Under the pieces are notes generated by a model, which was not told the DNA's origin, ran no database searches, and was given only the letters and a program-made list of their open reading frames with translations. A program made the position numbers and the translations under genes. 64,000 nt of DNA from a bacterium (lineage in GTDB: Bacteria > Patescibacteriota > Saccharimonadia > CAILAD01 > JADZBC01): the NCBI GenBank assembly GCA_020852295.1, contig JADZBC010000009.1, positions 7,081 through 71,080 of the forward strand, written 5' to 3'. The stretch's first letter is position 1; each line of letters begins with the position of its first letter. Below are positions 16,926 to 48,055 of the stretch, piece by piece.

Positions 16926-16968
16926 CTGGGTCTCGAGACGCTGCCATGTGCCGTCTCGGGACTCGCTT

Positions 16969-17355: not shown

Positions 17356-17383
17356 CAAAGGCTCGATCAGCCTCAATGATCAC

Positions 17384-25013: not shown

Positions 25014-25397
25014 TTACTTGAATTGCCCCAGAGTAAAGTTGACGATTGCGTAGGCCAGTATAGCAATAATAAGCCCTATTACCGCGTAGACGATCGTGTC
25101 TTTGGCGCCGGTGGTAGCCTTTTCGTTGCCAGCCGATAATACATATCGCAGAGCGCCAATGATGATCATGATAACCGATGCAACCCCCACTACAATAAGC
25201 AGGGTGTTGGTGATGGTGCGAATACTATCGAGCAAATTACTCGTGGCACCAGTGCCAGCAGCGCAGTCTGCACCACCCTGAATCGTATTGTCAGTGCAGG
25301 CAGCCGACGCTGGACTAGGTAATAAGCCAGGTAACAGCAAAGCTAGCTGGATTGATCCAGCTAGCAGTTGGTTACTTACTTTTTGCTTTGCAGCCAC
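25014..25397 (-). CDS. VirB2/TrbC-like pilin-family protein, paralog 6 of 6.
   Basis: Signal peptide, Cys-containing variable segment, and shared C-terminal module TNTLLIVVGVASVIMIIIGALRYVLSAGNEKATTGAKDTIVYAVIGLIIAILAYAIVNF (TM, short polar loop, TM). Confidence 0.6.
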   Translation of the reverse strand: MAAKQKVSNQLLAGSIQLALLLPGLLPSPASAACTDNTIQGGADCAAGTGATSNLLDSIRTITNTLLIVVGVASVIMIIIGALRYVLSAGNEKATTGAKDTIVYAVIGLIIAILAYAIVNFTLGQFK

Positions 25398-25399
25398 CC

Positions 25400-25816
25400 C
25401 TACACCGCCGGCGTTTGGGTAAACTGCCCAAGGACAAAGTTAACAGCAGCGTAAGCTACGAGACACACGATAATACCGATGATGGCATATACGATAGTGT
25501 CCTTCGCGCCCGTAACGGCCTTTTCGTTACCTTGAGAGAACACATAGCGGAATCCTCCGATGATCAACATCAGAACCGCAACAATACCGACACCCAAAAT
25601 AAGAGTGTTTGTGATTACACGAATATTGAGCAGCAAATCTGTGGATGCACCAGTCGGCTTAATTTTGTTCAGTCCGCCCGGGTCATCTGGATTTAGGGCA
25701 CTTGGTACTGTTACATTTGGTTGCGTCCCGGGGGCGTCAACTGCCAAAGCGCGACTAGCAGCCATCGTGAAGTAGGCTCCGGCAACTGCTGGCACACTTT
25801 TTAATACGTTTCTCAT
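25400..25816 (-). CDS. VirB2/TrbC-like pilin-family protein, paralog 5 of 6.
   Basis: Same C-terminal module (VITNTLILGVGIVAVLMLIIGGFRYVFSQGNEKAVTGAKDTIVYAIIGIIVCLVAYAAVNF). Confidence 0.6.
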   Translation of the reverse strand: MRNVLKSVPAVAGAYFTMAASRALAVDAPGTQPNVTVPSALNPDDPGGLNKIKPTGASTDLLLNIRVITNTLILGVGIVAVLMLIIGGFRYVFSQGNEKAVTGAKDTIVYAIIGIIVCLVAYAAVNFVLGQFTQTPAV

Positions 25817-25899
25817 CTGATAATTTCTCCTTGGTATTGTGATATTAATATAATTCTTGACCTGATTGTAGACTATTTTTTTGAGCGTGACAATTATAT

Positions 25900-26187
25900 C
25901 TAGAGGCGGCCAATGATAAAGGTGACGATGGCATAGCCAAGTACTGCCAACACTACACCGACAACCGCATAGAGGATAGTATCCTTCGCTCGAGCCAGTT
26001 TGTTTTGATCACCCGCCGAGACCACATACATAAGGGCACCTACGATGATCATGATGACCGAGCCACTGCCAATGACAAAGATGATCGTATTAATGATAGT
26101 GGTAGCGAGATTACCTTGGGTCGTGAACGATTTGGCCGCTACGTCGGGTGGTACACTAACCACGATGTCTGAAAATATTTTTCCCAT
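25900..26187 (-). CDS. VirB2/TrbC-like pilin-family protein, paralog 4 of 6 (shortest, 95 aa).
   Basis: Module IINTIIFVIGSGSVIMIIVGALMYVVSAGDQNKLARAKDTILYAVVGVVLAVLGYAIVTF. Confidence 0.6.
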   Translation of the reverse strand: MGKIFSDIVVSVPPDVAAKSFTTQGNLATTIINTIIFVIGSGSVIMIIVGALMYVVSAGDQNKLARAKDTILYAVVGVVLAVLGYAIVTFIIGRL

Positions 26188-26192
26188 CGAAT

Positions 26193-26678
26193 TTAGTTGG
26201 CCTTTCCGATAACAAATGTGACGATAGAGTAGGCGAGAATGGCAACGATAAGACCGACAATCGAGTAAACAATTGCATCCTTGGCGACTCGCGTTCTGTT
26301 GGGATCACCCGCCGAGAACACATACAGCGCCGCGCCTATTAGTACGCCGATGACTGACACAACCCCGACGATCCAGCCAAGGAAGGTTATGACTCTTGAG
26401 ACAAGCTGGTTGACTGTAGAAGGAGTGGCACTACCCCCAAGCGATGAGGGTACCTTGGCGCCCGAGGCATTTGTTGGAGCTGGAGTAGGGGCGGGAGTAC
26501 GAGGAACCCCAACTACACATCTACCGTCTGGCTGAGCAGTCTTTCCGGTGCTTCCGTCGGGCAAGGTGCAAGGCAGGCCAATATCTTCAGGTGGCAATGC
26601 CGCCGATGCCATTCCCACGAAAGACAACGCTAGGCCCAATATGAGTATCGCCGATGTAAATAAATACTTTGGTTTCAC
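26193..26678 (-). CDS. VirB2/TrbC-like pilin-family protein, paralog 3 of 6, with a Pro/Thr-rich variable region.
   Basis: Signal peptide, Cys pair, PTPAPTNAS linker, then module VITFLGWIVGVVSVIGVLIGAALYVFSAGDPNRTRVAKDAIVYSIVGLIVAILAYSIVTF. Confidence 0.6.
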   Translation of the reverse strand: MKPKYLFTSAILILGLALSFVGMASAALPPEDIGLPCTLPDGSTGKTAQPDGRCVVGVPRTPAPTPAPTNASGAKVPSSLGGSATPSTVNQLVSRVITFLGWIVGVVSVIGVLIGAALYVFSAGDPNRTRVAKDAIVYSIVGLIVAILAYSIVTFVIGKAN

Positions 26679-26686
26679 ATCTTTAC

Positions 26687-26950
26687 CTATTTAAACTGCG
26701 TTACTACTACATTAACTATGAGATAGGCAGACATTGCGATTACAAGACCAGCAATAGACCAGGTAATCGCATTTTTCGCTTGGCGCAGCCTATCAGGTTG
26801 ACCAAATGAGGATGCGTACATAATGCCGCCAATAATAAGAAAAATTACCGATAGTACACCCACGAACCAAAAGGCGATAATCATAGCATTTGCAAGTATC
26901 TGCTTCGGCCCATCGAGCGAGAACAGGTCCACACCATTAAAGAGATTCAT
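26687..26950 (-). CDS. VirB2/TrbC-like pilin-family protein, paralog 2 of 6.
   Basis: Module ANAMIIAFWFVGVLSVIFLIIGGIMYASSFGQPDRLRQAKNAITWSIAGLVIAMSAYLIVNV. It overlaps the next gene by 1 nt. Confidence 0.55.
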   Translation of the reverse strand: MNLFNGVDLFSLDGPKQILANAMIIAFWFVGVLSVIFLIIGGIMYASSFGQPDRLRQAKNAITWSIAGLVIAMSAYLIVNVVVTQFK

Positions 26951-27339
26951 TAAAAGTTACCTCCGGCGATTATCAAGTTAAGAATAACCCTCATAGATAC
27001 AAGAACAAACAATCCTGTTATCGAGGTTACTATTCGTTTTTTCGCCGCCTTAATTCCGTCCGGTTGACCCGCAGAAGTAATGAGTTGGATTGAGCTGATA
27101 ATAATAACCAGGACAGCCACCCCGCCGATAAGCCCAGTTACCCAGTTGGCAATCCCGTTAATTAGCATGATTGTTGCGTTTTCGCCGCCCGCACCGCATA
27201 TCGCACTAAGCCCAGGTGTACCTACCGTCACGTTGCCGCATTGTGCCGCATGAGCCGGTGTGCCACTCATAGCAACGAGTAGTGCGCCAATCAGTGTTTG
27301 TAATATTCTACCTTTGAGATTTTCCTGTTGCGCATCCAT
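26950..27339 (-). CDS. VirB2/TrbC-like pilin-family protein, paralog 1 of 6, closest to the divergent VirB6-like operon.
   Basis: Signal peptide ...AMSGTPAHAAQC, Cys pair, then module MLINGIANWVTGLIGGVAVLVIIISSIQLITSAGQPDGIKAAKKRIVTSITGLFVLVSMRVILNL. Confidence 0.55.
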   Translation of the reverse strand: MDAQQENLKGRILQTLIGALLVAMSGTPAHAAQCGNVTVGTPGLSAICGAGGENATIMLINGIANWVTGLIGGVAVLVIIISSIQLITSAGQPDGIKAAKKRIVTSITGLFVLVSMRVILNLIIAGGNF

Positions 27340-32573: not shown

Positions 32574-32613
32574 CCCTATCTAACCCGTGTGAATTATCAA
32601 GGAGAGTGGAGTT

Positions 32614-33531
32614 TTGCAGCCACAGGCCAATGCAAATCAAAATCCAGCTGCACCAGTCGCAGCTAATGCTGATCCTTCGGCAACACCGCCGAAAAAAGCA
32701 AAGGACCTGCGACAAAGTACGCAGAATCACTTACTGTTATCAGAAATACGTGATGGCATAGTGGTGATGCGCGATGGTAGCCTTCGCATGGTTATCATGG
32801 CTTCTGCGCTCAATTTCGACCTCAAAAGTCCCCAAGAACAAGATGCGATCGAAAGCTCGTATCAAGGATTTCTTAACGGTCTTCATTTCCCAATCCAAAT
32901 CCTAGTACGGTCTCGTCGAATGAACCTCGACAACTATCTGGCCGAGCTGGAGAGACTCCAAGGTGAACAAGAAAACCAACTCCTCGCTGGTCTCATGGAA
33001 GACTATATCTACAACATTCGCGGCCTCATTCAGGACATCAACATCATGGATAAGGAGTTTTACATCGTCGTACCTTATTACACGCTAGCGGTCACCAAGG
33101 AAGGTTTGGCCAGCAAGGTTCGTAAGGTATTTGAGGGTAATCGCGAGGTGAGCCAAACTGCTGAGACATTTGAGGCACACAAGCGAGATCTTATACAGCG
33201 CACCAACCTCGTTGCCCAGGGACTTGCACAAATGGGTGTTCGTGCGGCAGTACTGAATACCCAGGAGCTGATTGAGCTCTTTTACTCCGTCTACAACGAA
33301 GACGAATCACAGAGCCAGTCGCTCGTCGAAGTGGATGAACTTACGACCCCTATTGTAGAGCGAGGCAACGCAGCCCCAATGCCGGCCGGCCCGCCGCCGC
33401 CAGCACCGATCGAGCCAGATGACATGTATACTGCAGCTCAGCGTGAGGGTATTGGGGCACAAGCAACGGCTGCGCCACAAGCGGCCGATCCAAATGCCTA
33501 CCAGCAGCCACCACAAGGGGGGCAGCAGTAA
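32614..33531 (+). CDS. VirB4/TrbE-family N-terminal domain encoded as a separate ORF, with Q/P-rich termini.
   Basis: RMVIMASALNFDLKSPQEQDAIESSYQGFLNGLHFPIQILVRSRRMNLDNYL matches the conserved N-terminal region of VirB4/CagE/TrbE. It ends in a TAATG overlap with the next ORF. Confidence 0.6.
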   Translation: MQPQANANQNPAAPVAANADPSATPPKKAKDLRQSTQNHLLLSEIRDGIVVMRDGSLRMVIMASALNFDLKSPQEQDAIESSYQGFLNGLHFPIQILVRSRRMNLDNYLAELERLQGEQENQLLAGLMEDYIYNIRGLIQDINIMDKEFYIVVPYYTLAVTKEGLASKVRKVFEGNREVSQTAETFEAHKRDLIQRTNLVAQGLAQMGVRAAVLNTQELIELFYSVYNEDESQSQSLVEVDELTTPIVERGNAAPMPAGPPPPAPIEPDDMYTAAQREGIGAQATAAPQAADPNAYQQPPQGGQQ

Positions 33532-35426
33532 TGGGTCTCTTTGGCAACAAGCAACCTCAACAGCCCCAAGTCGATCCGCAGGCAGCCGCTCAAGCTGCGC
33601 AAAATGCGCAGGCAGAGGCCGTCTATCGACAAGGTGTGGTGACGCTTCGTGACACCATCGCTCCGTCATCCTTCGAGATAGAAAGTAACTTCATTAAGAT
33701 CGGCAAGCGCTATGCACGAACGCTGTTTGTCTATGGATACCCTCGTACGCTCTTTACTGGCTGGCTCAGCCCGCTCATCAACCTAGACGAGGTTATCGAC
33801 ATCAGTATGTTTATCGAGCCAGTCGAAAGCCGAGTGGTACTCGAAAACCTTCGCAAAAAAGTAGGGCAACTTGAAGCTAGCATCACTATCAACCAAGAAA
33901 AGGGCATGGTGCGTGATCCGGGCCTGGAAGCGGCAGTCCAAGATGCCGAGGAACTCCGTGACGCCCTACAGGTTGGAGAAGAACGCTTCTTCCGCTTTGG
34001 ACTGTACTTCACAATCTACGGCAAAGACCTCGAGGAGCTCGACCTCGTTCAGCGCAAAGTCGAGAGTATGCTTGGTAGTAGCCTGATCTATACCAAACCA
34101 GCCACTATTCAGATGGAGCAAGGCTTCAACTCCTCGGTACCAATTGCGACCGACCTACTTGGCATCAGCCGCAATATGAACACAGGCTCACTCTCAACAA
34201 GCTTTCCTTTTACGACTGCGGAGCTTAGTCAGGATAAGGGAATTATGTATGGCGTTAATCGGCACAATAACAGCCTGGTTATCTTTGACCGGTTTAGCTT
34301 AGAAAACGCCAATATGGCCGTCTTTGCTAAATCTGGTGGTGGTAAGAGTTTTGCGGTCAAGCTTGAATGCCTGCGCTCGCTCATGATGGGTACCGAAATC
34401 ATCATTATCGACCCAGAAAACGAATATAAGACCCTGTGTGACGCAGTCGGGGGTGGCTTTTTACGCCTCTCGCTGGCCAGTGACACCCGCATCAATCCAT
34501 TTGACCTGCCTCAGACAGTAGACCCAGAAGAAGCCGACAATGCGCTTCGAGCCAATATTATTATGCTCACTGGACTCATCCGACTGATGTGTGGCGACCT
34601 TTCGCAAACCGAGCTGGCCGACCTCGATGTGGCGCTCATCAATACTTACGCCGAAAAGGGGATTACCAATGACCCTCTCACGCATACTGCCGTGCCGCCA
34701 ACCATGACCGACCTGTACAACACCCTCATCAGCATGGGCGGGACCGGCCCATCAATTGCTGCTCGTTTGCGCCGCTACGTTGAAGGTACCTTCTCTGGAA
34801 TCTTCTCACAGCAGTCCAATGTCGACCTGAACTCAAAGTTCGTCGTGTTCAATATTCGTGACCTGGAAGACGAAATGCGACCGATCGGCATGTACATCAC
34901 ACTTAACTATATCTGGAATCGCGTGAAGAGCGAGAAGAAAAAGCGCATTCTCGTGGTGGATGAAGCCTGGCAACTTATGCAATATCAAGAATCGGCTCAG
35001 TTTATGTTCTCGATCGCCAAGCGTGCCCGTAAGTATTACCTTGGACTTACTACGATCTCGCAGGACGTCGAGGATTTCTTAAGTACCCGCCTTGGACGTG
35101 CAGTCGTCAGCAACTCATCACTCCAGCTCCTGCTTAAGCAATCACCATCGGCTGTCGATATTGTAGCTGATACCTTCAAATTAACTTCCGAGGAGCGCAA
35201 CCGCCTCACACAGTTCCCAGTCGGTGAAGGGCTATTCTTTGCTGGACTGTCGCACGTGATTCTGCGTATTCTTGCTTCTCCTACAGAAGAACAACTCATC
35301 ACCACCAACCCACAACAATTGCTCGACCGCGAAGCTGCCACACAGGCACAAACCCTGACTGACGAACTAACCGCTGGGCCCGTTGAGCTGGCGCAGCAGA
35401 CAGATGCTGGAGTAGCAAATGGCTAG
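33531..35426 (+). CDS. VirB4/TrbE-family T4SS ATPase, C-terminal ATPase portion.
   Basis: Walker A AVFAKSGGGKSF, Walker B ILVVDEAWQLM, and VirB4-type motifs (IIIDPENEY, RKYYLGLTTISQDVEDF). Confidence 0.85.
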   Translation: MGLFGNKQPQQPQVDPQAAAQAAQNAQAEAVYRQGVVTLRDTIAPSSFEIESNFIKIGKRYARTLFVYGYPRTLFTGWLSPLINLDEVIDISMFIEPVESRVVLENLRKKVGQLEASITINQEKGMVRDPGLEAAVQDAEELRDALQVGEERFFRFGLYFTIYGKDLEELDLVQRKVESMLGSSLIYTKPATIQMEQGFNSSVPIATDLLGISRNMNTGSLSTSFPFTTAELSQDKGIMYGVNRHNNSLVIFDRFSLENANMAVFAKSGGGKSFAVKLECLRSLMMGTEIIIIDPENEYKTLCDAVGGGFLRLSLASDTRINPFDLPQTVDPEEADNALRANIIMLTGLIRLMCGDLSQTELADLDVALINTYAEKGITNDPLTHTAVPPTMTDLYNTLISMGGTGPSIAARLRRYVEGTFSGIFSQQSNVDLNSKFVVFNIRDLEDEMRPIGMYITLNYIWNRVKSEKKKRILVVDEAWQLMQYQESAQFMFSIAKRARKYYLGLTTISQDVEDFLSTRLGRAVVSNSSLQLLLKQSPSAVDIVADTFKLTSEERNRLTQFPVGEGLFFAGLSHVILRILASPTEEQLITTNPQQLLDREAATQAQTLTDELTAGPVELAQQTDAGVANG

Positions 35427-38400
35427 CCCTACGATGCCCAAGCCAACTGGCGGAAATAGGCCCAAACCAAACCCGCGACCCCAAGGTCAAACTGGTGGAA
35501 GCCAAAGTAGCGGATTTCGGCCAATGCAGAGTGAGCGTATGGGCCCGACAAAAAATGCCGCCAGGCAAGCCGGTGCACCGGTAGTAGACAAGGATCTAAA
35601 GGAGGGACTCCATGCCGAAACAAGGGCTGAGCGAGCTCAAGCTCGACAGGACCTTACAAAACGCGTTGAGCATGCTCGAGGTGGTGCTGCGGGTAAAGTA
35701 GCAGCAGCTAGGCAGGGTGGCACAAAAGAGGCTGCCGTTGAAGCTGGCAGGCAGGCGGCCGTAAAGGGATTTGAGAAGGGCGCCCAGTACGCGGCCGACG
35801 CCGCAACTGGTGGCGCAGCCGAAGCTGTAAGGCCAGTAATCAAGGCGGCCGCTAAGGCACTGGAATGGCTTTCGCGCAACAAGCGCTGGCTCAAGATCGG
35901 TGCGGTCCTGATATCGCCACTCATTTTCGTATTTCTATTAATCATATGGATTATTAGCGACCCTTTTGGATCAATTTCAAAAATTGGCTACACCGCGTTT
36001 AATGCCTTCAAAACTGCAGCTGGAGCAGCAATATCTGGTGCAGGATTTAGTGCCGAACTGACCATCAATGACCTCAATGAACAAATGAAGTCAGTGGCAG
36101 CAACCAATAGTGCAGGAATTATGCCGGAAGAGGGTACGATAGCATACAAACTCCTACAGATAGACGCAGAAAAAATTCAGACTAGCTCATACAATCCTGG
36201 AATACCCTTTAAGATTGAAACCAAAAAAATCAATGGTCCTGACGGAAGGTCGTATACCGTCATGGATAAGGTCGTAAATACAAACAGCGGATCGTCGATT
36301 AGCATTAAAGACGCCGCTAGCCCGACAGGCCCAATCGGCCAGAAAAACATTGTGGCCGCAGTATTGTCTCAGAAAATCCCAATCATGCAGTTTATGATCC
36401 GCCAGCCAGCGACGAGAAAATTAAACAAAGCACCAGACCTTGGGCTTGCGCTAAACTATGGCGAGAACAAAGATAATCAAAATGCAAATCTTAATCGGCC
36501 ATACGAAGAGCTTCAAAAGTTCCTAAAGGAAAAAACGTATAAACGCGTGCGTGGCTCCAGCATTACTCTGCCGACAGTAGGTGTTGTAGGTTCAGATGAG
36601 TCAAAATTAGTCACTCAAAAAATCGTCGATTCGATTAAAAAGGTTCAAGATGACATCGTAAAGGATTACGAGCCTTCGAAACTACAAATAGAGCTGCCAT
36701 ATGATCAATTTGGTCAAGAGCGCTTATCGCCAAAGCGAATAAGCAATACATTGTGTGCGTTCCAGGAAATTCTGCTGGATCCAAAGAATATTGCTAGTGC
36801 AGTAGAGAGTCGAGCAAATGCTGCTAGGCGTGATGGTGCAAAATTTATGACACTGAAAGACACTCATAATAAGGCAGCACTAGACACTAATGAGCTGAAG
36901 TTTAGTATTCAACAGATGGCTGACTACACAAAAAGTATGTCCTACCAGAGAATTGTATATGGCCGACTTTCGGGCGAGGCAGTTGATCCTGATGGGATTG
37001 GTCAGGCTGCTATGTCTATCACGCGAGAAAAGTATGACGCTAGCGCACAAACAATACTCCAAAATATGTCTGACACCTGCGGAACATTGCGCTACCTCGA
37101 CCAGCGAAGGGCCGATGAGGCTGCGGACGCGAGTGTCTGGTCGGATGAAAGTCCTAACAACTTTATCCGTACATACTATCGGGAAATCCGCACCGCAAAT
37201 GTTACTGTGCAGGATATACAGAGCTATTATGTTGAATATAGAGACAGTCCAACCTGCGATCCCCTGCGACCAAATAGTGACAGTAGTGATAAGGTTCGTT
37301 GTGCTGTTTATTCCTTTAGAATCGCAATCCTACGAAACTACTTCAACAAATTTCAGCAAGAGATATATCGTGGAAGCCAAAAATACTACACTAGCCCCGA
37401 GAAGGTAACACCCGAAGACATTACTACTCGACTTATTAAGATTGGCGCTGGGGTATCTACTACCGGCCTCGAGGATGGCAATCAAAATTTTTCACGAGCT
37501 ATACAGGGATTAAACCAGTTAAACTACGACTACAGTATGGTATACGGTGGTAGATTTTTGACAGATGCAGAAAATGACCAGAATGCAAAAGAGCTTGCCG
37601 AATTACGTGACTGGCAAACCAAAAACTACGGCATAGCATACCGGGTCTTTAATACCGATAATGTCAGTTCTATAGCTAGCCGGTTGATGCAGCACACCCC
37701 ACCTGAACCAAAACGCGCAATAGCCTGGATGTTCGGAAGTATATTGAAAGCGATAATTAACCCCATACGTACTTTTGCCACGATAGATGGTGCTGCCAAC
37801 TATGTGCTCAAAGGGGAACAAAATATTGCGATGGCCGCAGACCAAGCGGTTTACAATGATGCCCGATACAATAAAGCCAGTCCTGTCGGCTTCACTAAGC
37901 AGGAAACCTCAATCGACTGGAAAAACAATGCAAAGTTTATTGAGGCACTGAAGAAAAATAAAACGCAAGTAGTTGATCCTGACCCACTCGTAAATGGCGC
38001 AAAGGTTGACGCCAATACACTCTTTAGTAAATGGGACAACTGTTTCACCTCGAAGATTACATCGGAAATATATTTTGACGACAATTACCTAGCGGCGCTA
38101 AATTTTGGTGCCAATCTTCCCGAGATTCCTCAGCAAGAGAGAGATGAGTTTAAGCGTAAGTATGAACTCTTTAGTGGCTGTAAACCACTGCTGAGTAGTG
38201 CATCAAATAATATTAACTCGCTCCAAGTACAGTATCGCGTTTACCGTTTTCGATCTCTAGTATTGGACAGCCTAGTAACCCTGAGTAACGACGAGGAAGA
38301 TAAAAATCTCGACGCAAATGGCGACCAGGGTGCGACGCCCTCAACAAGCGCCGGGCCAGGGGGTCCAAGTGGTGTTAATGGACTTCAGAGCCCACCAAAC

Positions 38401-38904
38401 CTAGGAGCAGCAGATAGTCAGGGCTATTATCGTTTACCTCCATCCGCTGATGGCTCATACAGAACATATAGTACGCCTGGTGAGCAATGTGGTAGCCTTG
38501 CACTCATCCAAACACTCTATACAGTCTCGCAGGCCTGGAAGGCAAGATTTGGAGGCAATCTCTACATCGGAGACCTCAACGCCTCCGGCCACAAAAGTCA
38601 CCGCAACGGCGTAGATGTTGACCTTATTGCAATAGCGGGTGACGGCAGCCGGGCAGCCGACTACTCTCGCGGTGGTTATTCTAGAGATAAGACGATCGAA
38701 CTAGGAAAGATGTTCGTAGATACTGGTATCGTCACGGATATCGGATACCAAGATGGGCAGGCAGGGTCGGCTATTGATGCTTACTATAGGGAGAAGGGAC
38801 AGGGTAGTAGTGTGGTAAGGCCTTGGTCAGGGCACGATGACCACTTCCATGTGCGAATAAAGGATGAATTTAGAGGACCAAGGAGTGAGCGCTGTGCAAA
38901 CTAA
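35419..38904 (+). CDS. Giant membrane-anchored protein with a C-terminal LAS-type zinc peptidase domain similar to penicillin-insensitive murein endopeptidase MepA.
   Basis: 1161 aa. Basic disordered N-terminus, one TM (KIGAVLISPLIFVFLLIIWIISDPF), a long extracellular region, and a C-terminal NASGHKSHRNGVDVDL ... SGHDDHFHVRI (H..D ... HxH metal ligands as in MepA HQTGLDVDI / DDHFHVR). ATG overlaps the VirB4 stop (ATGGCTAG). Confidence 0.7.
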   Translation: MASPTMPKPTGGNRPKPNPRPQGQTGGSQSSGFRPMQSERMGPTKNAARQAGAPVVDKDLKEGLHAETRAERAQARQDLTKRVEHARGGAAGKVAAARQGGTKEAAVEAGRQAAVKGFEKGAQYAADAATGGAAEAVRPVIKAAAKALEWLSRNKRWLKIGAVLISPLIFVFLLIIWIISDPFGSISKIGYTAFNAFKTAAGAAISGAGFSAELTINDLNEQMKSVAATNSAGIMPEEGTIAYKLLQIDAEKIQTSSYNPGIPFKIETKKINGPDGRSYTVMDKVVNTNSGSSISIKDAASPTGPIGQKNIVAAVLSQKIPIMQFMIRQPATRKLNKAPDLGLALNYGENKDNQNANLNRPYEELQKFLKEKTYKRVRGSSITLPTVGVVGSDESKLVTQKIVDSIKKVQDDIVKDYEPSKLQIELPYDQFGQERLSPKRISNTLCAFQEILLDPKNIASAVESRANAARRDGAKFMTLKDTHNKAALDTNELKFSIQQMADYTKSMSYQRIVYGRLSGEAVDPDGIGQAAMSITREKYDASAQTILQNMSDTCGTLRYLDQRRADEAADASVWSDESPNNFIRTYYREIRTANVTVQDIQSYYVEYRDSPTCDPLRPNSDSSDKVRCAVYSFRIAILRNYFNKFQQEIYRGSQKYYTSPEKVTPEDITTRLIKIGAGVSTTGLEDGNQNFSRAIQGLNQLNYDYSMVYGGRFLTDAENDQNAKELAELRDWQTKNYGIAYRVFNTDNVSSIASRLMQHTPPEPKRAIAWMFGSILKAIINPIRTFATIDGAANYVLKGEQNIAMAADQAVYNDARYNKASPVGFTKQETSIDWKNNAKFIEALKKNKTQVVDPDPLVNGAKVDANTLFSKWDNCFTSKITSEIYFDDNYLAALNFGANLPEIPQQERDEFKRKYELFSGCKPLLSSASNNINSLQVQYRVYRFRSLVLDSLVTLSNDEEDKNLDANGDQGATPSTSAGPGGPSGVNGLQSPPNLGAADSQGYYRLPPSADGSYRTYSTPGEQCGSLALIQTLYTVSQAWKARFGGNLYIGDLNASGHKSHRNGVDVDLIAIAGDGSRAADYSRGGYSRDKTIELGKMFVDTGIVTDIGYQDGQAGSAIDAYYREKGQGSSVVRPWSGHDDHFHVRIKDEFRGPRSERCAN

Positions 38905-40906
38905 AAGTAAACTATTTTCTACCGCCAGTATTGCTGTTTTCATAATTTCTTTACTCCTGCAGCCCCTAAACACACTCGCCGCAAGTCCAGAACAGCGCAT
39001 TAATATCGAGCGTCGGCCCTGGTTTGACCCTACAGACATCGCCTGCACAAATACAACCGCTCCAGGCACAAACCAGTCTACAGTACAGCCGGGTCCAATA
39101 TATATCGTCGGCGACTCAGTGATGGATGGTGCAAAATCTAAGGTCGAGCCAACTATTACAGCAGCGGGTTGGCAGCCTAAATTCAACACTCTTGTATCGA
39201 GAAAGCTTAGCGGAACACCACCAAATCCTGATGGTTTTGGCGCTATTGCGCTTGATGGTGATTTTATAAAAACTGCAAAAGCTGTTGTGATCGAGCTTGG
39301 CACTAACCCTTCATCGGAATTCAGTAAAAAAGTACCTGAGTTTGTACAAGCAATAAAACAGCTAAATTCAGCCGTAACTATCTACTGGATTGATACGGCG
39401 AGCCCCGGTAGATCGGATTTTCAAAACCACATCAAAAACGCCAATACCGCTATCTATAACAACTCGACATCTTCGGGTTATAAAGTAATATCTTGGTTTA
39501 AGAAAGTGTTTGGAGATTCTTCTGATCCTCTCAACCCATCATCCACCGCACCAGACACCGGTAAGCTTATTTCGACAGCCGATGGGCTCAACGTTCACCC
39601 TACTGACGCAGGGAAGCAAGCAATGGCTGATATTGTGTTGCAGAATATCGGAGGACAAACTCCGGCACAAGCCGCCATTGCAATGAACACTCGAACCAAG
39701 GCGATTATCGACAGTCAGCTAAAAATACTAGCTGCTGACACCGGTCAGGCCAACACAGCACCAATTGCAGTCCCAGAACCATACGCCTCAATTTTCCCAA
39801 AGGCCGCTGCTCGACACGGCACAGACCCGATATTTCTCGCTACAATTTTTCTCGCTGAGCACGGCGGAGGATTCCCTAATCCGCCACCGCCATACGGTAC
39901 AGGTGGCCGCTGGGCAACGTCAAACAAGGGTGCTAATGGTCCATTTCAGTTTCTCGTGAGTACTTGGGCGGGTAAAAAACAAGATGCCGACAGAATGACT
40001 GTCAAGAAATTCAACTCGAACGAAACAATCGAGGTTGGTGGAGATGGTACAACAGACATTCAGGATCTAGCCGACGCCGCCTTTGGTGCAGCGCAATACC
40101 TTGCCGAGGCAGGTGGAAAAGTGGGGACCCCACTTGGTGATACCGTTAACCCTATGGCCGAGAACACACTTACCTCCGCTATGGTTGCATACAATGCAGG
40201 TGGTGGAAATCTTAACAAATGGAGGAGATGCGGAACCTCGCTGTCCTGTATCGGTGCAGCCGAGACTAGGAAATATGTAACAAATGGAGTGAACTACTAC
40301 CAGCGTCTTGGTGGACAGCTAAACGTTGATCCGGGTGCCACCACTACAAATCAAACCTGTAGCGATGGCTCGAGCACAACTCCTGGCGGCGGGCTCGGTG
40401 TATCTGCTGATGGCTTTGTATTTCCATTGAAAACCACTAAAGCAGTTATCCGGCAAGGAGCAGATGGCGCCGTATGGTGTATACAGGCCCAGAATAATTG
40501 CCACCATGATTACAATGCGGCGGACATTCATGCGCCAACCGGAACGATTGTAGTTGCTGCGAGAGGTGGGACTGTCTTAAGTACGAGAACTGAGGTTAAT
40601 TATGAAAACGGCAATACGCTCCGCATACAGGGTGATGATGGACTTTGGTATTATTACGCACATATGGGGGATGGGACACTGAAGGTGAAAAAGGGCGATA
40701 AGGTGACTGCAGGCCAAGAACTAGGAGCAGTAGGAACTTCAGCAGATGCTCAGGGAACGGCACCACACCTACACTTCGATATTGCAGACCACGAAAATGG
40801 CTTCTCCCGAGGACGTGGCGGTGCATGCGGATTCGAGTGCCAAAACTACCTCATCAATCCACAGCCTGTATTAATTGCAGCATTTGCTAAGTTACCGGAG
40901 AACTAG
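38894..40906 (+). CDS. Secreted tri-domain peptidoglycan hydrolase: SGNH/GDSL esterase, lytic transglycosylase (SLT) and M23 (LytM) endopeptidase.
   Basis: Signal peptide; IYIVGDSVMDG (GDS motif block I); SLT motifs AEHGGG...GANGPFQF...AYNAGGGN; M23 motifs HHDYNAADIHAPTGT...HLHFD. Start set to GTG 38894, which lies 8 nt after AGGAG. The track ATG at 38864 lies inside the upstream gene. Confidence 0.75.
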   Translation: MQTKSKLFSTASIAVFIISLLLQPLNTLAASPEQRINIERRPWFDPTDIACTNTTAPGTNQSTVQPGPIYIVGDSVMDGAKSKVEPTITAAGWQPKFNTLVSRKLSGTPPNPDGFGAIALDGDFIKTAKAVVIELGTNPSSEFSKKVPEFVQAIKQLNSAVTIYWIDTASPGRSDFQNHIKNANTAIYNNSTSSGYKVISWFKKVFGDSSDPLNPSSTAPDTGKLISTADGLNVHPTDAGKQAMADIVLQNIGGQTPAQAAIAMNTRTKAIIDSQLKILAADTGQANTAPIAVPEPYASIFPKAAARHGTDPIFLATIFLAEHGGGFPNPPPPYGTGGRWATSNKGANGPFQFLVSTWAGKKQDADRMTVKKFNSNETIEVGGDGTTDIQDLADAAFGAAQYLAEAGGKVGTPLGDTVNPMAENTLTSAMVAYNAGGGNLNKWRRCGTSLSCIGAAETRKYVTNGVNYYQRLGGQLNVDPGATTTNQTCSDGSSTTPGGGLGVSADGFVFPLKTTKAVIRQGADGAVWCIQAQNNCHHDYNAADIHAPTGTIVVAARGGTVLSTRTEVNYENGNTLRIQGDDGLWYYYAHMGDGTLKVKKGDKVTAGQELGAVGTSADAQGTAPHLHFDIADHENGFSRGRGGACGFECQNYLINPQPVLIAAFAKLPEN

Positions 40907-42188: not shown

Positions 42189-42457
42189 CGCACACTCACG
42201 GCGATAAAGCGTACACCTTCGACACCGCGTTTTGTAATCTCTTTAAGGATATCCTGCGCGGCATGCCGCAGTTCACTCGCAGCCGCGGCGTCCTCGGTCG
42301 CAATCTTAATGACCCCATTCTTGTAGCTAACTACTCGTACCTCAATGCGAAGCATATCAACAATCGCAAGTTTTACCTCGGTCATGACGTCAAGCTTCTG
42401 CATGCCAAGACTATCGGCACGCCGACTCAGTATGTCCTTGATGTCATCCATGGCCAA
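42185..42457 (-). CDS. DUF721-like small protein, as in the conserved recF-associated position.
   Basis: 90 aa, located immediately downstream of recF with a 14-nt overlap, matching the common dnaA-dnaN-recF-DUF721 arrangement. Confidence 0.55.
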   Translation of the reverse strand: MAMDDIKDILSRRADSLGMQKLDVMTEVKLAIVDMLRIEVRVVSYKNGVIKIATEDAAAASELRHAAQDILKEITKRGVEGVRFIAVSVR

Positions 42458-43517
42458 CCCCGCTCAAATCGATCACCTGAATATCCATATTGCTCATCCC
42501 ATCAAGCTCGGTTGCAGTGATGAATGTTTGTTGTTGCCCAACGATAGCTATGAGATGCTGTCGGCGGCGCTCATCGAGCTCGCTAAATACATCATCCAGA
42601 AGAAGGGTAGGGCGCTGTAAAGTCTTCGCCTGCATATATTCAATCTCAGAGAGCTTCATTGCCAAAATAAGCGTTCTCATTTCGCCGCGTGACACGATTT
42701 CGACAACCGGCCGATTGTCGCGCAGAATACTAAAATCATCACGATGTGGTCCCAAAGTACTAAAACCGGCCGCCACGTCGCGTACATGGGCCCTGCGCAG
42801 CTCTGAGAGGTATTCATTGTCCATGCTTACACTCGGCCGATACTCCAAAACAAACTCATGGGTAAGGTTTGCGATGCGACCATACTCGCCATTGAGCTGG
42901 TCGGCCATAGTCTTAAGGAAGTCAGCTCGAGTAACCATAAGGTGTTGTGCTGGTTCAGCCAGCTGCACATCAAAAACAAAAAGCTGATCTGACAGACTCG
43001 CATCGTCTGCTCGACCATATTTTTTAGCTTGATGGAGGAGACTGTTGCGCTGCTTAAGTATGCGCCGATAGAGCGATAACTGCTTCATATAGGCGCGATC
43101 GACTTGCGATAATATCGTATCCAAATAGCGTCGGCGCTGACTTGGCCCATCATAGAGAAGCGACAGATCCCTGGGCTCAAAAAGAACTACCGGATGACGG
43201 CCAACTAAGTATGAAAGAGGTTTTTTAACATCACCCAGTAGAGCTGTCTTGTGGTGACTGTCGCCAGTAACAACATACCGAACCTCTGTCATTTCATCTT
43301 CATGCTGACAGCGAACCTTATAAAAATCAGCCTCAAAATTTACGAGTTCGGGATCGTGCGCTCGAAATGACTTTGTCGTAGCGCTTACATAGATCGATTC
43401 GAGTAGGTTAGTCTTGCCGACGGCATTTGGGCCAATAATCGCGACGATAGAGGATGTAAAATCAATACCAAAATCTTTGTAGGATCGAAAGTTGGTTAGC
43501 GCCAGATGCTTGATCAT
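42444..43517 (-). CDS. recF: DNA replication and repair protein RecF.
   Basis: Walker A GPNAVGKTNLLESI, SMC-like signature and Walker B LLLDDVFSELD. Confidence 0.9.
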   Translation of the reverse strand: MIKHLALTNFRSYKDFGIDFTSSIVAIIGPNAVGKTNLLESIYVSATTKSFRAHDPELVNFEADFYKVRCQHEDEMTEVRYVVTGDSHHKTALLGDVKKPLSYLVGRHPVVLFEPRDLSLLYDGPSQRRRYLDTILSQVDRAYMKQLSLYRRILKQRNSLLHQAKKYGRADDASLSDQLFVFDVQLAEPAQHLMVTRADFLKTMADQLNGEYGRIANLTHEFVLEYRPSVSMDNEYLSELRRAHVRDVAAGFSTLGPHRDDFSILRDNRPVVEIVSRGEMRTLILAMKLSEIEYMQAKTLQRPTLLLDDVFSELDERRRQHLIAIVGQQQTFITATELDGMSNMDIQVIDLSGVGHG

Positions 43518-43523
43518 ACATGC

Positions 43524-44630
43524 CTAGCTACGTAGTGGCATAATAATGTGTCGATACGAGGTATCCTGTTCACCTTTGACAGGCGTGACAAGACAGGGGT
43601 TGAGCTTGCCTGAAATACCAAGTTTAACGGTCGGGGTTTTGACGACTGTCAATACATCAAGTAGGTATTTAGCATTGAGCGAGATTTCACCAGGATCACC
43701 AACGAGCTTGGTCTCGAGTGAAGATTGGTTTTCGCCAACCTGGGCGGCACTACTCGAAATTGACAGCTTGCCAGCCTCAAACGTCAGCTTGATCGTATTG
43801 GCAGTTTCTCGAGCAAAAAGACCTGCTACCTTAATCGTTGAGAGTAGTTCGGCCGTATCAACTACCGCTTCCGTCTCATTCTTATCAGGAATTATTTTTT
43901 TGTAATCAGGGAATTTACCCTCAATCAATCGAGAAACAAGCCGAATGTCGCCCATATTAAACTCTATCTCTGTCTCGGTTGCGCCAACTTCAACATCACC
44001 CTCGTACTGAGAGAGGATTCGAATGAGTTCGTTGACCGTCTTCGCCGGCACGATAAAATCAGCATCCGCCTTTTGCTCTTGCGTAAGGGCAACAACTGAT
44101 TCAGCGAGTCGATAGCTATCGGTCGCAGCTAATAGCAACTCTTTTCCGCGAACAGAGAAGACCACACCAGAAAGAACCGGTCGAGACTCATCAACAGCCG
44201 CCGCAAACCCCACCTGACTGAGCGCGGTGACGAGTGTTGCCGCTGGAAATGAAAGCGATGTGGTTGGCTTGATGACCGGCACATTCGGAAACTCTTCACT
44301 CGCAATCCCATTAATGGTTGACTCGAAGTTAGTCGTCTTGATGTGGAGGTTTTGTGCCGCCGCGTTGAGCAGTAGCTTGTCGCTGGGGAGGGAATTGATG
44401 AGCTCGGTCAGAAGGCGAGCAGGCACACTGAGGCTGCCATCAGTTTCAACCTTGGCACCTACCTGATAAACGATAGCTATTTCTAGATTTGTACCAATTA
44501 CTTCGAGTCGTCCCAAGTTTGCCTTGAGTAATACGTTAGAGAGTACGGCTAGGCTCGATCGATTACCTACTACACGACTCACCACGTTTAAGGCTTTACT
44601 TAAATTTTCTTGAATTACTGATACTTTCAT
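43524..44630 (-). CDS. dnaN: DNA polymerase III beta sliding clamp.
   Basis: 368 aa with a three-domain clamp pattern (MKVSVIQENLSKALNVVSRVV... ; ...LNPCLV...), positioned between dnaA and recF. Confidence 0.9.
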   Translation of the reverse strand: MKVSVIQENLSKALNVVSRVVGNRSSLAVLSNVLLKANLGRLEVIGTNLEIAIVYQVGAKVETDGSLSVPARLLTELINSLPSDKLLLNAAAQNLHIKTTNFESTINGIASEEFPNVPVIKPTTSLSFPAATLVTALSQVGFAAAVDESRPVLSGVVFSVRGKELLLAATDSYRLAESVVALTQEQKADADFIVPAKTVNELIRILSQYEGDVEVGATETEIEFNMGDIRLVSRLIEGKFPDYKKIIPDKNETEAVVDTAELLSTIKVAGLFARETANTIKLTFEAGKLSISSSAAQVGENQSSLETKLVGDPGEISLNAKYLLDVLTVVKTPTVKLGISGKLNPCLVTPVKGEQDTSYRHIIMPLRS

Positions 44631-44928
44631 ATTTATCCCCTCAAGCTATTGCTTATTATAAGTTAATTAATAAATAGTAGTGATAGTAATAGTGTCTGTG
44701 GATAGCTTGGAAAAGTCGAAAAAACACTATGTTTATCGTTTGTTTTTGTTTTCTACACTGTGTACAAGCACTGCATACGAATATGTGTGTAAATGTATAA
44801 CTTGTGCATGTTTTGTGTTTTCATAATCTAGTGAGTCTGTCAATTGTGTTTATCTAGTGGAAAAACACACGGTTTTAAACAACTATTACACAACTTATCC
44901 ACCACTTAACCACAGGGCCTGTGTATAA
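44631..44928. promoter_or_regulatory. AT-rich dnaA-dnaN intergenic region with DnaA-box-like 9-mers, a candidate oriC half.
   Basis: TGTGGATAG at 44697-44705 and TTATCCACC at 44895-44903, plus AT-rich tracts. Confidence 0.45.
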
Positions 44929-46314
44929 CTATCCATTGAGGATTTTTTGTTTCAGGGTTTTTATTTCATGACTAACTGAATCATTCTTTGTGAGTTCGGC
45001 ATTGATTTTGCGTACCCCGTGCATGATGGTCGTATGGTCCCGACCACCAAGAGAACTAGCGATACGTGGAAAACTAATGCCAAGCTCTTCACGCATGATA
45101 TACATCGCTACCTGACGGGGCACCACAATCTCCTTGTCGCGGCGGGGGCCGATGAGATCGGCAGTCGTTAGATCGTAAAAAGCGGCAGTCTTTTCGATAA
45201 CTATCTTTGGACTCAAGGTGGTCCGCGATGGTCGCGCTGTCGCCCCGCCGCCGATCACCTGGTCGACTATTTCGGTTGTGATTGGGGTGGCATTAGCTTG
45301 GCAATGGGCGATCAGTCGAGTGAGGGCACCCTCAAGTTCTCGAATATTGGTCTGTAGTAGCTCAGCCAAGTGACTCGCTACATTGTCTGGGAGGTCGAAC
45401 TGACGACTGCTAGCCTTACTCTGTAAGATCGCGACCCGTGTCTCGAAGTCTGGCAGCTGAATATCGGCGACCATACCCCACTCAAAGCGGCTCCTTAAGC
45501 GGTCCTCAAGGGTGGCGATAGCTTTTGGTGGTCGGTCGGAACAGAGCACAATCTGCTTGTTGGCCTGGTGGAGTGCATTGAAAGTATGAAAAAACTCTTC
45601 CTGGGTTTTCTCTTTGCCGGCAATAAACTGCAGATCATCAACCAGTAGGACATCAACCGTTCTATACGTATCGGCAAACTTTTCACCTTTTCGAATGGCG
45701 TTAATGAAATTATTCGTAAAGTCCTCACTCGTAACATATAAGATCTTAAAGTCCGGGTGACTACGAGCGATCTCAAAGCTGATCGCCCACATCAGGTGAG
45801 TCTTACCGACACCAGCTGGCCCATACAGAAAGAGGGGGTTGTACGATTCACCGGGGTTTTCAGTAACCTGGCGAGCTGCCGTAAAAGCGAGCCGATTGCC
45901 GGACCCAACGATAAAGTTGGTGAAGTTGTACTTTGCTTCGAGATTCTTCGGCAGGCTGATTTGCGACTGACGATTATTGGCGGACTGCTTTGTTTTCTGT
46001 GGGGTAGTTGGCTTTTCGGTTGGCCGATCGAGCCGAATATCTTCTTCCGCGGCCGTGCTCGCGGTCTTTATCTGGTAGGTAATTGATTCAATCGAGGGCT
46101 CTTGCTTCTGTAGGGCCGACAATATTTCACCATTATAGTTATGCTCAAGTCGATCTCGTGCAAAGATATTAGGAGCTGCAACGACAGCCTGAGTGTCGCC
46201 GAGCTCGAGCAGGTGAGTGTTCTTCACCCATGTTTTAAAGTTTGCACCGCTCATAGAGACCTCTAGCTCACCAAGAACGGCTCGCCAGATCCTATCGAGA
46301 TCCTTTTGTGACAT
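44929..46314 (-). CDS. dnaA: Chromosomal replication initiator DnaA.
   Basis: AAA+ Walker A GPAGVGKTHL, Walker B LLVDDLQF, and C-terminal DnaA-box-binding HTH (...RQVAMYIMREELGISFPRIASSLGGRDHTTIMHG...). Confidence 0.95.
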   Translation of the reverse strand: MSQKDLDRIWRAVLGELEVSMSGANFKTWVKNTHLLELGDTQAVVAAPNIFARDRLEHNYNGEILSALQKQEPSIESITYQIKTASTAAEEDIRLDRPTEKPTTPQKTKQSANNRQSQISLPKNLEAKYNFTNFIVGSGNRLAFTAARQVTENPGESYNPLFLYGPAGVGKTHLMWAISFEIARSHPDFKILYVTSEDFTNNFINAIRKGEKFADTYRTVDVLLVDDLQFIAGKEKTQEEFFHTFNALHQANKQIVLCSDRPPKAIATLEDRLRSRFEWGMVADIQLPDFETRVAILQSKASSRQFDLPDNVASHLAELLQTNIRELEGALTRLIAHCQANATPITTEIVDQVIGGGATARPSRTTLSPKIVIEKTAAFYDLTTADLIGPRRDKEIVVPRQVAMYIMREELGISFPRIASSLGGRDHTTIMHGVRKINAELTKNDSVSHEIKTLKQKILNG

Positions 46315-46439
46315 AACTACCTCACCCCCTGTGAATATATCTCTATACTAGCGATTTTGTGAGTTTTCCACAACTGTAAAAGACCACAAAAGTAATCCAC
46401 AGAAATTGTGGGTTATGTGGAAAACTTTATAATGGCTCA
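46315..46439. promoter_or_regulatory. Region upstream of dnaA with a cluster of DnaA boxes, a candidate oriC with dnaA autoregulation.
   Basis: TTTTCCACA at 46365-46373, TAATCCACA at 46393-46401, TGTGGGTTA at 46407-46415, TGTGGAAAA at 46417-46425, in alternating orientation. Confidence 0.5.
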
Positions 46440-46468
46440 TTGACGTTTAAGGTGATTTAGGCTAAAAT
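46440..46468 (+). promoter_or_regulatory. Sigma-70-like promoter for the rpmH-rnpA operon.
   Basis: TTGACG, 17 nt, then TAAAAT, ending 12 nt before the rpmH ATG. Confidence 0.45.
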
Positions 46469-46479
46469 ATTACGGAATT

Positions 46480-46614
46480 ATGAAACGAACTTATCAACCG
46501 AAAAAACGACGACGTCAGCGAGTACACGGGTTTATGGCTCGTATGTCCACACGCGTAGGACAGGCTGTATTGAAGCGCCGCCAGGCAAAAGGCCGTAAGC
46601 GGGTAGCTATTTAA
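46480..46614 (+). CDS. rpmH: 50S ribosomal protein L34.
   Basis: [44 protein letters not shown], 44 aa. It is below the ORF-track cutoff. TAATG overlaps rnpA. Confidence 0.9.
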
Positions 46615-46955
46615 TGCTCAAGCAGAGCTTCCGACTCCGTAGCTCAACTGATTTCAATAAGACCTACAAATTCGGCCGCAGCACCAATGCGGCTACTTTG
46701 TATATAAAAGCACTTCAGACCCGTCAGCCGATTAGTCGATGTGCAGTGGTCGTCTCAAAAAAAGTCGCAAAGAAGGCTACGGATCGAAACAAGATCAAGC
46801 GTCGCGTTGCAGAAATAGTCCGAGTTAACTGGGATAAGGTTACTCCTGGCTACAATCTCATCATCTCTCTCAAGCAGGATATTGCAACGCTCGATCAGTC
46901 AAAATTAGAGCACGAGGTACTGGAGTGTCTGAAGCGCGCCGGAGTGGTTCGGTGA
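46614..46955 (+). CDS. rnpA: Ribonuclease P protein component.
   Basis: 113 aa, basic. It has RLRSSTDF and KKVAKKATDRNKIKRR motifs and sits immediately after rpmH. Confidence 0.9.
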   Translation: MLKQSFRLRSSTDFNKTYKFGRSTNAATLYIKALQTRQPISRCAVVVSKKVAKKATDRNKIKRRVAEIVRVNWDKVTPGYNLIISLKQDIATLDQSKLEHEVLECLKRAGVVR

Positions 46956-47227
46956 ACCGAGCGCAAAAACACCTCATAAGACTGATAAAGATCTACCAAA
47001 AGACACTTTCGCCAGATCACGGACCACGCAAAGTGCGATATCCAGCTGGTTATTGTCGACATTACCCAACTTGTAGCGACTACACGATGTTGGCGATTGA
47101 GCAAAAAGGGGCGATTAAAGGAGTTGGACTCGGGCTGTGGCGAGTGTTAAGATGTAACCCATGGGCAAAGCCAGCGGTGGATTTTTCTCATCTTGATCAG
47201 AAAAAATTTTCAGCCAAGGAGCAGTAG
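46925..47227 (+). CDS. yidD: Membrane protein insertion efficiency factor YidD.
   Basis: Signature CRHYPTCSDY. GTG start with alternatives at 46925 and 46952. It overlaps the rnpA end. Confidence 0.8.
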   Translation: MSEARRSGSVNRAQKHLIRLIKIYQKTLSPDHGPRKVRYPAGYCRHYPTCSDYTMLAIEQKGAIKGVGLGLWRVLRCNPWAKPAVDFSHLDQKKFSAKEQ

Positions 47228-47230
47228 TTT

Positions 47231-48055
47231 ATGTTTGACGCATTATTAATACATCCATTCTTAAATCTCCTAATGGCGATTTACGGAATTATACCAGGGC
47301 ATGACTTTGGCATAGCTGTCATTATTATGACGCTCATTATTCGGTTTGCACTGTGGCCGCTCACTGGTAAGCAGCTTCATTCGCAAAAGAAACTACAGGC
47401 CTTACAGCCTGAGATCTCAAAAATTCGCGCCTCGGCCGGCGGCGACCGTCAGAAGGAGAGTCAGATGCTTATGGAGCTCTATAAGGAGCGGGAGATTAAT
47501 CCATTTTCTGCCTGTCTGCCGGCGCTCTTTCAGTTCCCATTCTTGATCGCCCTGTTTTTTGTTTTTCAGCAGAGCATTCACGGTGTAGAGAAGTTTGGGC
47601 CAAGTCTCTATAGTTTTGTGGCAAATATTCCATACATTAAGGAAGTATTGGCTAATCCTGCCCTGTTCTCACCAAAGCTTCTTGGTGTGGTTAGTATGGC
47701 GCAGCCGAGTATTGCACTCGCCATCATTGCTGGTCTTACGCAGTACATACAGGTCAAGATGATCACTCCAAAGGTTACCGATGGTGACGCGCAAGCCAAG
47801 GCGAATGCCAGCATGACACTCATCTTTCCAGCACTTACTATCTTCATTGCCTGGAGCCTACCGGCTGCATTACCCCTCTACTGGACAGCGGCTAACTTGG
47901 TTGCTATCTTCCAGCAGAAGTTGATCATGTCGCAGGAGACCGAGAAGATGGAAGAGGTCGCCGAGGCGGTCGTAGTAGCCAAAAAGAAATCAACAAAGAC
48001 CGCTGCGAAGAAGTCAGTCAAAACCAAGAAGAGGACAAAACGGGGGAATAAATGA
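47231..48055 (+). CDS. yidC: Membrane protein insertase YidC/Oxa1 (short Gram-positive type).
   Basis: Five-TM core with conserved ...PLTGKQLHSQKKLQALQPEI... and C-terminal KK-rich tail. Confidence 0.9.
   Translation: MFDALLIHPFLNLLMAIYGIIPGHDFGIAVIIMTLIIRFALWPLTGKQLHSQKKLQALQPEISKIRASAGGDRQKESQMLMELYKEREINPFSACLPALFQFPFLIALFFVFQQSIHGVEKFGPSLYSFVANIPYIKEVLANPALFSPKLLGVVSMAQPSIALAIIAGLTQYIQVKMITPKVTDGDAQAKANASMTLIFPALTIFIAWSLPAALPLYWTAANLVAIFQQKLIMSQETEKMEEVAEAVVVAKKKSTKTAAKKSVKTKKRTKRGNK

Follow-up and report, generated by a model that had tools for sequence, protein, structure and literature searches.

A TrsD-like protein and a short VirB4 as the probable two-gene VirB4 unit of a chromosomal Saccharibacteria type IV secretion system

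The stretch of DNA analyzed here (contig JADZBC010000009.1 of assembly GCA_020852295.1, positions 7,081 to 71,080; 64,000 nucleotides (nt), hereafter "the window") belongs to a member of the Saccharimonadia and carries a type IV secretion system (T4SS) locus, in which the region expected to encode the ATPase VirB4 is occupied by two overlapping open reading frames (ORFs), ORF1 and ORF2. We consider it highly probable that this locus is the standard VirB4 unit of a chromosomal Saccharibacteria T4SS and that it consists of two genes, one for a TrsD-like protein and one for a short VirB4. Both ORFs are real genes. A previous sequence-only reading of the window had left three explanations side by side, namely a natural gene split, recoding or readthrough, and a recent pseudogenizing stop. 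The natural split is the one that the data strongly favor, as the two-gene layout recurs across the Patescibacteria, on a Bacillota plasmid, on a haloarchaeal plasmid and on pGO1.

ORF1 and ORF2 share a single nucleotide in a TAATG stop/start overlap (Table 1). This overlap, which the sequence-only reading had described, is borne out by the ORF list and by the junction sequence as read from the window (cagcagTAATGggt). Taking ORF1 as the reference, ORF2 is read in the -1 frame, and the ATG at 33531 is the earliest start codon of its frame past an upstream stop; the start that gives ORF1 a length of 305 amino acids (aa) is also the one used in the public annotation (P0001). Other elements of the earlier description hold as well. 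The N-terminal motifs quoted there are present in ORF1, within the invariant core of its family (N67, D69, L70, S72, E75, S100, R101, L105, and Y108), and the Walker A and Walker B motifs are both located in the other ORF. The Gln/Pro-rich, low-complexity tails reported at both ORF ends are reflected in the residue counts (A13, P12, Q8, and G6 in residues 250-305 of ORF1; Q8 and A8 in residues 1-30 of ORF2). The summed length of 936 aa does exceed that of the single-chain VirB4 proteins PrgJ of pCF10 (796 aa) and TrwK of R388 (823 aa), but it is raised by the extra disordered tails; the difference from these proteins is that the window has their first ~180-220 residues as a separate polypeptide.

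ORF2 passes the curated cut-off of the model for CD1110-family VirB4 (NF045971; 372.5 bits against a cut-off of 325, E = 4e-111). It covers model positions 178-731 of 752 only, and full-length coverage in one polypeptide is not found, the N-terminal ~177 positions lying outside ORF2. The Pfam domains P-loop_TraG, AAA_10, and DUF87 are matched, as is the solved VirB4 C-terminal domain (4ag5; E = 5e-52), and with Walker A and Walker B the protein has the nucleoside triphosphate-binding motifs of the VirB4 family. Residue 222 of PrgJ aligns with ORF2 residue 37, and nothing in ORF2 corresponds to PrgJ residues 1-221; TrsE of pGO1 (672 aa) is colinear with ORF2 from residue 7 (25% identity, E = 7e-47). 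Judged by these alignments, ORF2 comprises the remainder of the VirB4 N-terminal half (residues ~30-260) together with the P-loop ATPase; the part of fused VirB4s such as PrgJ that it lacks is approximately their first 180-220 residues. It is more than an ATPase alone, because 266 residues precede Walker A and because its close homologs have precomputed matches to the Pfam families CagE_TrbE_VirB and TraC_F_IV. The division into an "N-domain" and an "ATPase" proposed by the sequence-only reading is thus correct in so far as the ATPase motifs are in ORF2, but the break itself falls within the N-terminal half. As ORF2 keeps much of this half, ORF1 represents only its first sub-module.

For ORF1, a scan of a local copy of Pfam-A that probably lacks the PF26593 model returned no family, even at E ≤ 10. 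PF26593 ("TraC-like") is assigned to the identical protein P0001 and to most ORF1 homologs in precomputed annotation. Among the NCBIfam models, ORF1 matches TrsD/TraD (NF041427) with 26.9 bits and E = 3.8e-6 over positions 5-177 of 201, VirB4_plasma with E = 1.2e-4 over positions 102-233 of 894, and CD1110 VirB4 with E = 2e-3 over positions 11-79 of 752. When family members were scanned singly, 43 of 64 matched TrsD (E ≤ 0.01) and 42 of 64 the N-terminal region of VirB4_plasma (best E = 1.9e-7). On the models of fused VirB4s, ORF1 and ORF2 match complementary regions that do not overlap and that follow the order of the two genes. The arrangement by which the TrsD family is recognized, a VirB3-like gene followed by that of a small protein and then by a short VirB4 gene (~620-670 aa), is present here as PrgI, ORF1, and ORF2.

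A search of the ORF1-family profile against all PDB sequences yielded nothing meaningful, and folds were therefore compared instead. From an alignment of 64 sequences, AlphaFold2 gave a model of ORF1 whose core is confident: between residues ~41 and 220, blocks of ten residues mostly reach a predicted local distance difference test (pLDDT) score of 79-95, with a dip to ~60 over 161-180. Values below 50 occur at residues 1-26, 231-238, 243-253, and 281-297 and point to disordered tails, so that the protein can be described as a folded core of approximately residues 40-230 flanked by disordered, Ala/Pro/Gln-rich tails (1-30 and 250-305). The only matches to this predicted fold are the VirB4 (TrwK) chains from the R388 secretion system. 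ORF1 corresponds to the first 180-220 residues of a single-chain VirB4. By its profile matches, it can be regarded as a distant TrsD-like or TraC-like protein, which is outside NF041427 by the NCBI threshold; it is classed as a distant relative because its score is below that curated cut-off.

The split is conserved far beyond the window. ORF1 has 1131 homologs at E ≤ 1e-3, and the best 120 of these are all 243-392 aa long (54-100% identity); the nearest ones stem from Saccharibacteria and from Patescibacteria metagenome-assembled genomes. For ORF2, all 8000 candidates scored passed the same threshold, and the best 120 are all 606-726 aa long (74-100% identity) and originate from Saccharibacteria, Patescibacteria or metagenomic sources. 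The exact 305-aa ORF1 with its 1-nt ORF2 overlap occurs on eight independent metagenome contigs that derive from different samples and assemblers. On all eight, the 70-nt junction is identical; ORF2 is a complete 631 aa on six of them and is cut by the contig end on the other two. Related loci were also compared across Saccharibacteria and other Patescibacteria (13 genomes at the species level). In 12 of the 13, an ORF1 homolog (218-346 aa) is directly followed by an ORF2 homolog (593-726 aa), and the split is kept in relatives down to 37% identity. All 13 loci have a gene upstream of the ORF1 homolog. Orthologs are thus not uniformly single-ORF, which answers the comparison of single versus split virB4 that the sequence-only reading had proposed as a check.

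The form of the junction was recorded for the window and the 12 related loci with an adjacent ORF2. Eight loci (the window and seven of the 12 relatives) have the TAATG junction with a 1-nt overlap. Each of the following forms occurs once: an ATGA junction with a 4-nt overlap, a TAG directly abutting an in-frame ATG, and gaps of 3, 5, and 85 nt. Where the TAG abuts the ATG (L008:6808-6813), both ORFs are in the same frame and the TAG alone stands between them. At the locus with the 85-nt gap (L004:5419-5510), the Shine-Dalgarno (SD) motif and the TAATG are kept, but the frame opened by this ATG closes at a stop three codons later. The real ORF2 begins 85 nt downstream, and the junction looks recently remodelled.

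Comparable pairs exist in other phyla. On a Pontibacillus (Bacillota) megaplasmid (L014:4920-7599), a 274-aa protein and a 621-aa CD1110-family VirB4 overlap by 11 nt, and the gene order is a pilin-like gene, a large membrane protein, a small protein, the TrsD-like gene, VirB4, and a peptidase. A haloarchaeal plasmid of Halobellus (L015:4275-7792) encodes a much larger N-terminal protein of 549 aa, which overlaps a 623-aa DUF87 protein by 4 nt. On pGO1, trsD (227 aa) is separated by a 14-nt gap from the gene of a 672-aa DUF87 protein.

The two parts can also be found as one natural protein. A profile search for ORF1 relatives in 1.84 billion representatives (clusters at 50% identity, E ≤ 1e-3) yielded 3046 clusters. 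Among the best 150 of these, 149 are 166-478 aa long and a single one, P0346, has 898 aa. P0346 (L017:4001-6697; also on L018 and L019) is a single ORF that consists of a TrsD-like module and a short VirB4: its residues 5-229 align with ORF1 27-249, and its residues 322-890 align with ORF2 31-598. Like the pair in the window, this protein has both parts in the same order and is encoded 3' of a PrgI gene on the three metagenomic, Patescibacteria-like contigs shown, which represent three different sequencing runs (five contigs carry it in all). It differs in being one ORF: where the window has two tails with a stop and a start codon between them, P0346 has a linker of 92 aa. The corresponding place in the window is taken by a 56-aa C-terminal tail of ORF1 and a 30-aa N-terminal tail of ORF2. 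Such a fusion is classic Rosetta-stone evidence for the two products working as a unit. The proposal that the tails correspond to an interdomain linker gains support from the place and length of the P0346 linker. The more distant split relatives L010 and L013 are almost without tails; the long tails are therefore an elaboration of the Saccharimonadia and not a necessary relic.

Three other explanations have to be weighed against this background. The pair would be a pseudogene or an artefact if a single virB4 had recently been broken by a nonsense or frameshift mutation, or if an error in sequencing or assembly had made it look broken. The only feature in favor of this explanation is that two ORFs with low-complexity ends stand side by side. 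It is contradicted by the identical junction on independent contigs from different samples and assemblers, by the persistence of the split in distant relatives and other phyla, by the best 120 homologs of each part, all of which are stand-alone proteins, and by the conserved SD motif and ATG ahead of ORF2. We give this explanation practically no chance, and a recent nonsense mutation, a pseudogene, and an assembly error are excluded. Programmed recoding would produce some full-length fused VirB4, either by an SD-stimulated -1 frameshift on A GGG GGG (33516-33522) or, in relatives, by readthrough; in the window, the frameshift product would carry the junction-spanning peptide PPQGGAAVMGLF. Consistent with such a mechanism, ORF2 is in the -1 frame here, no stop codon interrupts that frame between the G-run and the ATG, only a TAG lies between the in-frame ORFs of L008, and P0346 indicates that a fused protein is viable in nature. 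However, the frame offset between ORF1 and ORF2 varies (ten loci have -1, two have 0, and one has +1), and the G-run of the window is not conserved either; in its place, relatives have GGAGG-type SD motifs without a slippery heptamer. The RNA downstream of the junction folds no better than shuffled sequences (z = -0.47), and an Rfam scan of the junction region matched no family. The combination of a conserved heptamer, a conserved frame and a stimulatory structure that characterizes programmed -1 frameshifting is thus not found. Moreover, the ATG of ORF2 is conserved throughout, and the N-terminus that follows from it is always of the Met-Ala-Arg/Lys type. Because the frames vary, the G-run is not conserved, and no structure or Rfam element was detected, frameshifting or readthrough, which the sequence-only reading had considered, is very unlikely.

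Initiation at the ORF2 ATG, either independent or coupled, is the parsimonious alternative to recoding. In 13 of the 14 loci, a GGAGG-like motif with a match of at least 4/5 is located 4-18 nt 5' of the start of ORF2; it is perfect in seven, against a background of 1-2% per locus, and encodes a recurrent Gly-Gly close to the ORF1 C-terminus. The sequence-only reading had called the two ORFs translationally coupled. Overlap and SD motif are indeed observed, whereas the coupling itself is something we infer from them, and short gaps and overlaps are common throughout this operon (as called, gaps of 5 and 40 nt are followed by overlaps of 1, 8, 41, and 32 nt).

The remaining explanation accepts two genes but assigns them different roles: ORF1 would be an independent accessory protein (TrsD), related to the VirB4 N-terminus by ancestry or fold only, that acts for example as an adaptor or in a chaperone-like manner, and the short VirB4 would work alone. 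We regard this as improbable, although less so than recoding, since the regions of the fused VirB4 models matched by ORF1 and by ORF2 are complementary, free of overlap and colinear, a natural in-order fusion with a linker exists, and the two genes are strictly adjacent with overlapping stop and start codons in most genomes. Several observations do count against the assignment of the locus as a two-gene VirB4 unit. ORF1 does not reach the curated cut-off of NF041427 (200 bits), and its sequence homology to the N-terminus of fused VirB4s is weak (NCBIfam E values of 1e-4 to 2e-3). This relationship was detected only by the curated multi-sequence NCBIfam models; hhalign comparisons of the ORF1 family with single PrgJ (pCF10) or TrsD (pGO1) sequences were not significant. 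Sequence divergence is also faster in ORF1 than in ORF2 (54-87% versus 74-89% identity). Finally, no VirB4 follows the ORF1 homolog at one of the 13 related loci (L012). Reading TGA as Gly (code 25) at this locus gave no downstream VirB4 either. The exception agrees with the published unlinking of TrsD and virB4 in Gracilibacteria (Quinonero-Coronel et al., 2025).

If the locus is a two-gene VirB4 unit, ORF1 and ORF2 would be made as separate polypeptides. ORF2 would be started from its own SD motif within the last ORF1 codons, at an ATG that overlaps the ORF1 stop, and ribosomes ending ORF1 would probably re-initiate at the ORF2 site or unmask it. The stop/start overlap might in this way hold the two products roughly equimolar. 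The core of ORF1 would be expected to dock on the N-terminal region of ORF2 and, together with the PrgI/VirB3-like protein, to anchor the ATPase hexamer to the membrane channel; we infer both steps by analogy from the VirB4-VirB3 contacts in the R388 structures. The disordered Ala/Pro/Gln-rich tails match the linker in the rare fused relatives in place and length.

The genes surrounding ORF1 and ORF2 form a complete T4SS cluster of the Patescibacteria type (Table 1). The six pilin genes are divergent in sequence and oriented divergently from the T4SS operon; one of them (25900-26187) scores 26.5 bits against a PF18895 gathering score of 26.6. The 1432-aa membrane protein is, because of its position, a tentative candidate for the VirB6-like channel subunit. 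It has many predicted transmembrane stretches mid-protein and a long C-terminal region with a Pro-rich tail, and this region contains near-duplicate Pro-rich segments, with GPTPPPGGAPPPPPP present twice. In the two hydrolase candidates (35419-40906), most of the length is without a family match: the M74 endopeptidase-like domain of the 1161-aa protein is confined to the extreme C-terminus, and the 680-aa protein has DUF459 and M23 domains. The scan of neighboring genes revealed neither a relaxase nor a coupling protein.

Table 1. Position of the VirB4 genes, their junction elements and the neighboring features in the window.
Feature	Position	Strand	Remarks
Six VirB2-like pilin genes, tandem array	25014..27339	-	PF18895 matches all six, E ≤ 1e-3
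Polytopic membrane protein, 1432 aa	27430..31728	+	Weak MMCAP2_0566 conjugal transfer match, E 2e-3
PrgI family (VirB3-like) membrane protein, 279 aa	31734..32573	+	PF12666, E 7e-14; directly 5' of ORF1
SD-like AAGGAGAG	32599..32606	+	~8 nt 5' of ORF1 TTG; read from sequence
ORF1, 305 aa	32614..33531	+	TTG start; TrsD-like / Pfam PF26593 "TraC-like" protein
SD-like AAGGGGGG for ORF2	33515..33522	+	Inside Gln-Gly-Gly codons close to ORF1 end
TAATG stop/start overlap, 1 nt common	33529..33533	+	TAA 33529-33531, ATG 33531-33533
ORF2, 631 aa	33531..35426	+	ATG start; short VirB4-type T4SS ATPase, CD1110 family
Walker A KSGGGKS	34329..34349	+	ORF2 residues 267-273
Walker B ILVVDEAW	34947..34970	+	ORF2 residues 473-480
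1161-aa protein, C-terminal Peptidase_M74-like murein endopeptidase domain (VirB1-like role)	35419..38904	+	Overlaps ORF2 by 8 nt
680-aa Peptidase_M23 protein	38864..40906	+	Second cell-wall hydrolase of operon
recF-like gene, dnaN, dnaA	42444..46314	-	~9.5 kb from ORF2

The T4SS operon ends ~250 bp from the recF-like gene, and yidC and mnmE follow dnaA on the plus strand, so that the origin neighborhood extends over 42444-49876. The cumulative GC skew has its minimum at 42-44 kb of the window. Based on this minimum and on the recF-like, dnaN, and dnaA genes, the T4SS cluster adjoins the replication origin. Elsewhere in the window, ARAGORN made three odd calls in a tRNA cluster (16850-16926, 17091-17173, and 17281-17356): a Gly tRNA (anticodon ACC), a Thr-GGT of 83 nt whose anticodon lies at position 30, and a "tRNA-???" for which a four-base anticodon, TCCA, is given. 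Only the other five tRNAs of this cluster pass the gathering score of the Rfam tRNA model, and the three calls are either false positives or degenerate tRNA-like sequences.

The pairing of TrsD with a short VirB4 is already published and an ordinary feature of these systems. Passages of Quinonero-Coronel et al. (2025, Microb Genom; PMC12102498) describe TrsD-VirB4 pairing in the Patescibacteria T4SS and a remote homology of TrsD with the VirB4 N-terminus. According to these passages, TrsD is the most abundant T4SS component recovered in Patescibacteria (2272 homologs, 1664 of them beside virB4), with no linkage to virB4 in Gracilibacteria, and VirB3 anchors VirB4 to the membrane complex. Pilin arrays and proximity to dnaA are reported there as well, and the TrsD homolog of Southlakia epibionticum ML1 is listed as essential (citing Wang et al., 2023). 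The system described there has the same parts in the same order as the window (pilin array, large membrane protein, PrgI/VirB3, TrsD-like protein, VirB4, and hydrolases) and lies likewise close to dnaA. The adjacent TrsD and PrgI/VirB3 homologs, the pilin array and the proximity to dnaA and the origin by which the system is recognized there are all present, and the window shows no substantive difference from it, being one more instance. The same T4SS locus is treated in a 2025 review (PMC12857230). In the passages of PMC12102498, the TAATG overlap, the SD motif embedded in ORF1, the exact place of the break and the fused form, which is rare, are not described. The small additions made here are the conserved TAATG, the SD motif in the Gly-Gly codons, the precise location of the break, and the natural fused relative.

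The TrsD/TrsE pair of pGO1/pSK41 (TrsD/TrsE = TraD/TraE; NF041427; pGO1 subclass of MPF-FATA) resembles the pair in the window in that TrsD (227 aa) is encoded directly 5' of TrsE (672 aa) and 3' of a 135-aa gene, which is taken as the VirB3-like TrsC in the relevant passage of PMC12102498. In contrast to the window, the two pGO1 genes are separated by a 14-nt gap instead of overlapping, and the TrsD match of ORF1 is remote (26.9 versus 200 bits). Furthermore, pGO1 is a conjugative plasmid with a relaxase and a coupling protein, whereas the locus in the window is chromosomal and near the origin.

The window leaves the published picture unchanged. Its practical meaning lies in annotation: few gene sets have been shown to be essential for epibiotic growth of Saccharibacteria, and the T4SS locus is one of them, which makes a correct annotation of its parts useful. 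No pseudogene flag is warranted for the ORF1-ORF2 pair, and the "hypothetical protein" encoded here 5' of the "DUF87 protein" is to be read as the detached, TrsD-like N-terminal module of VirB4.

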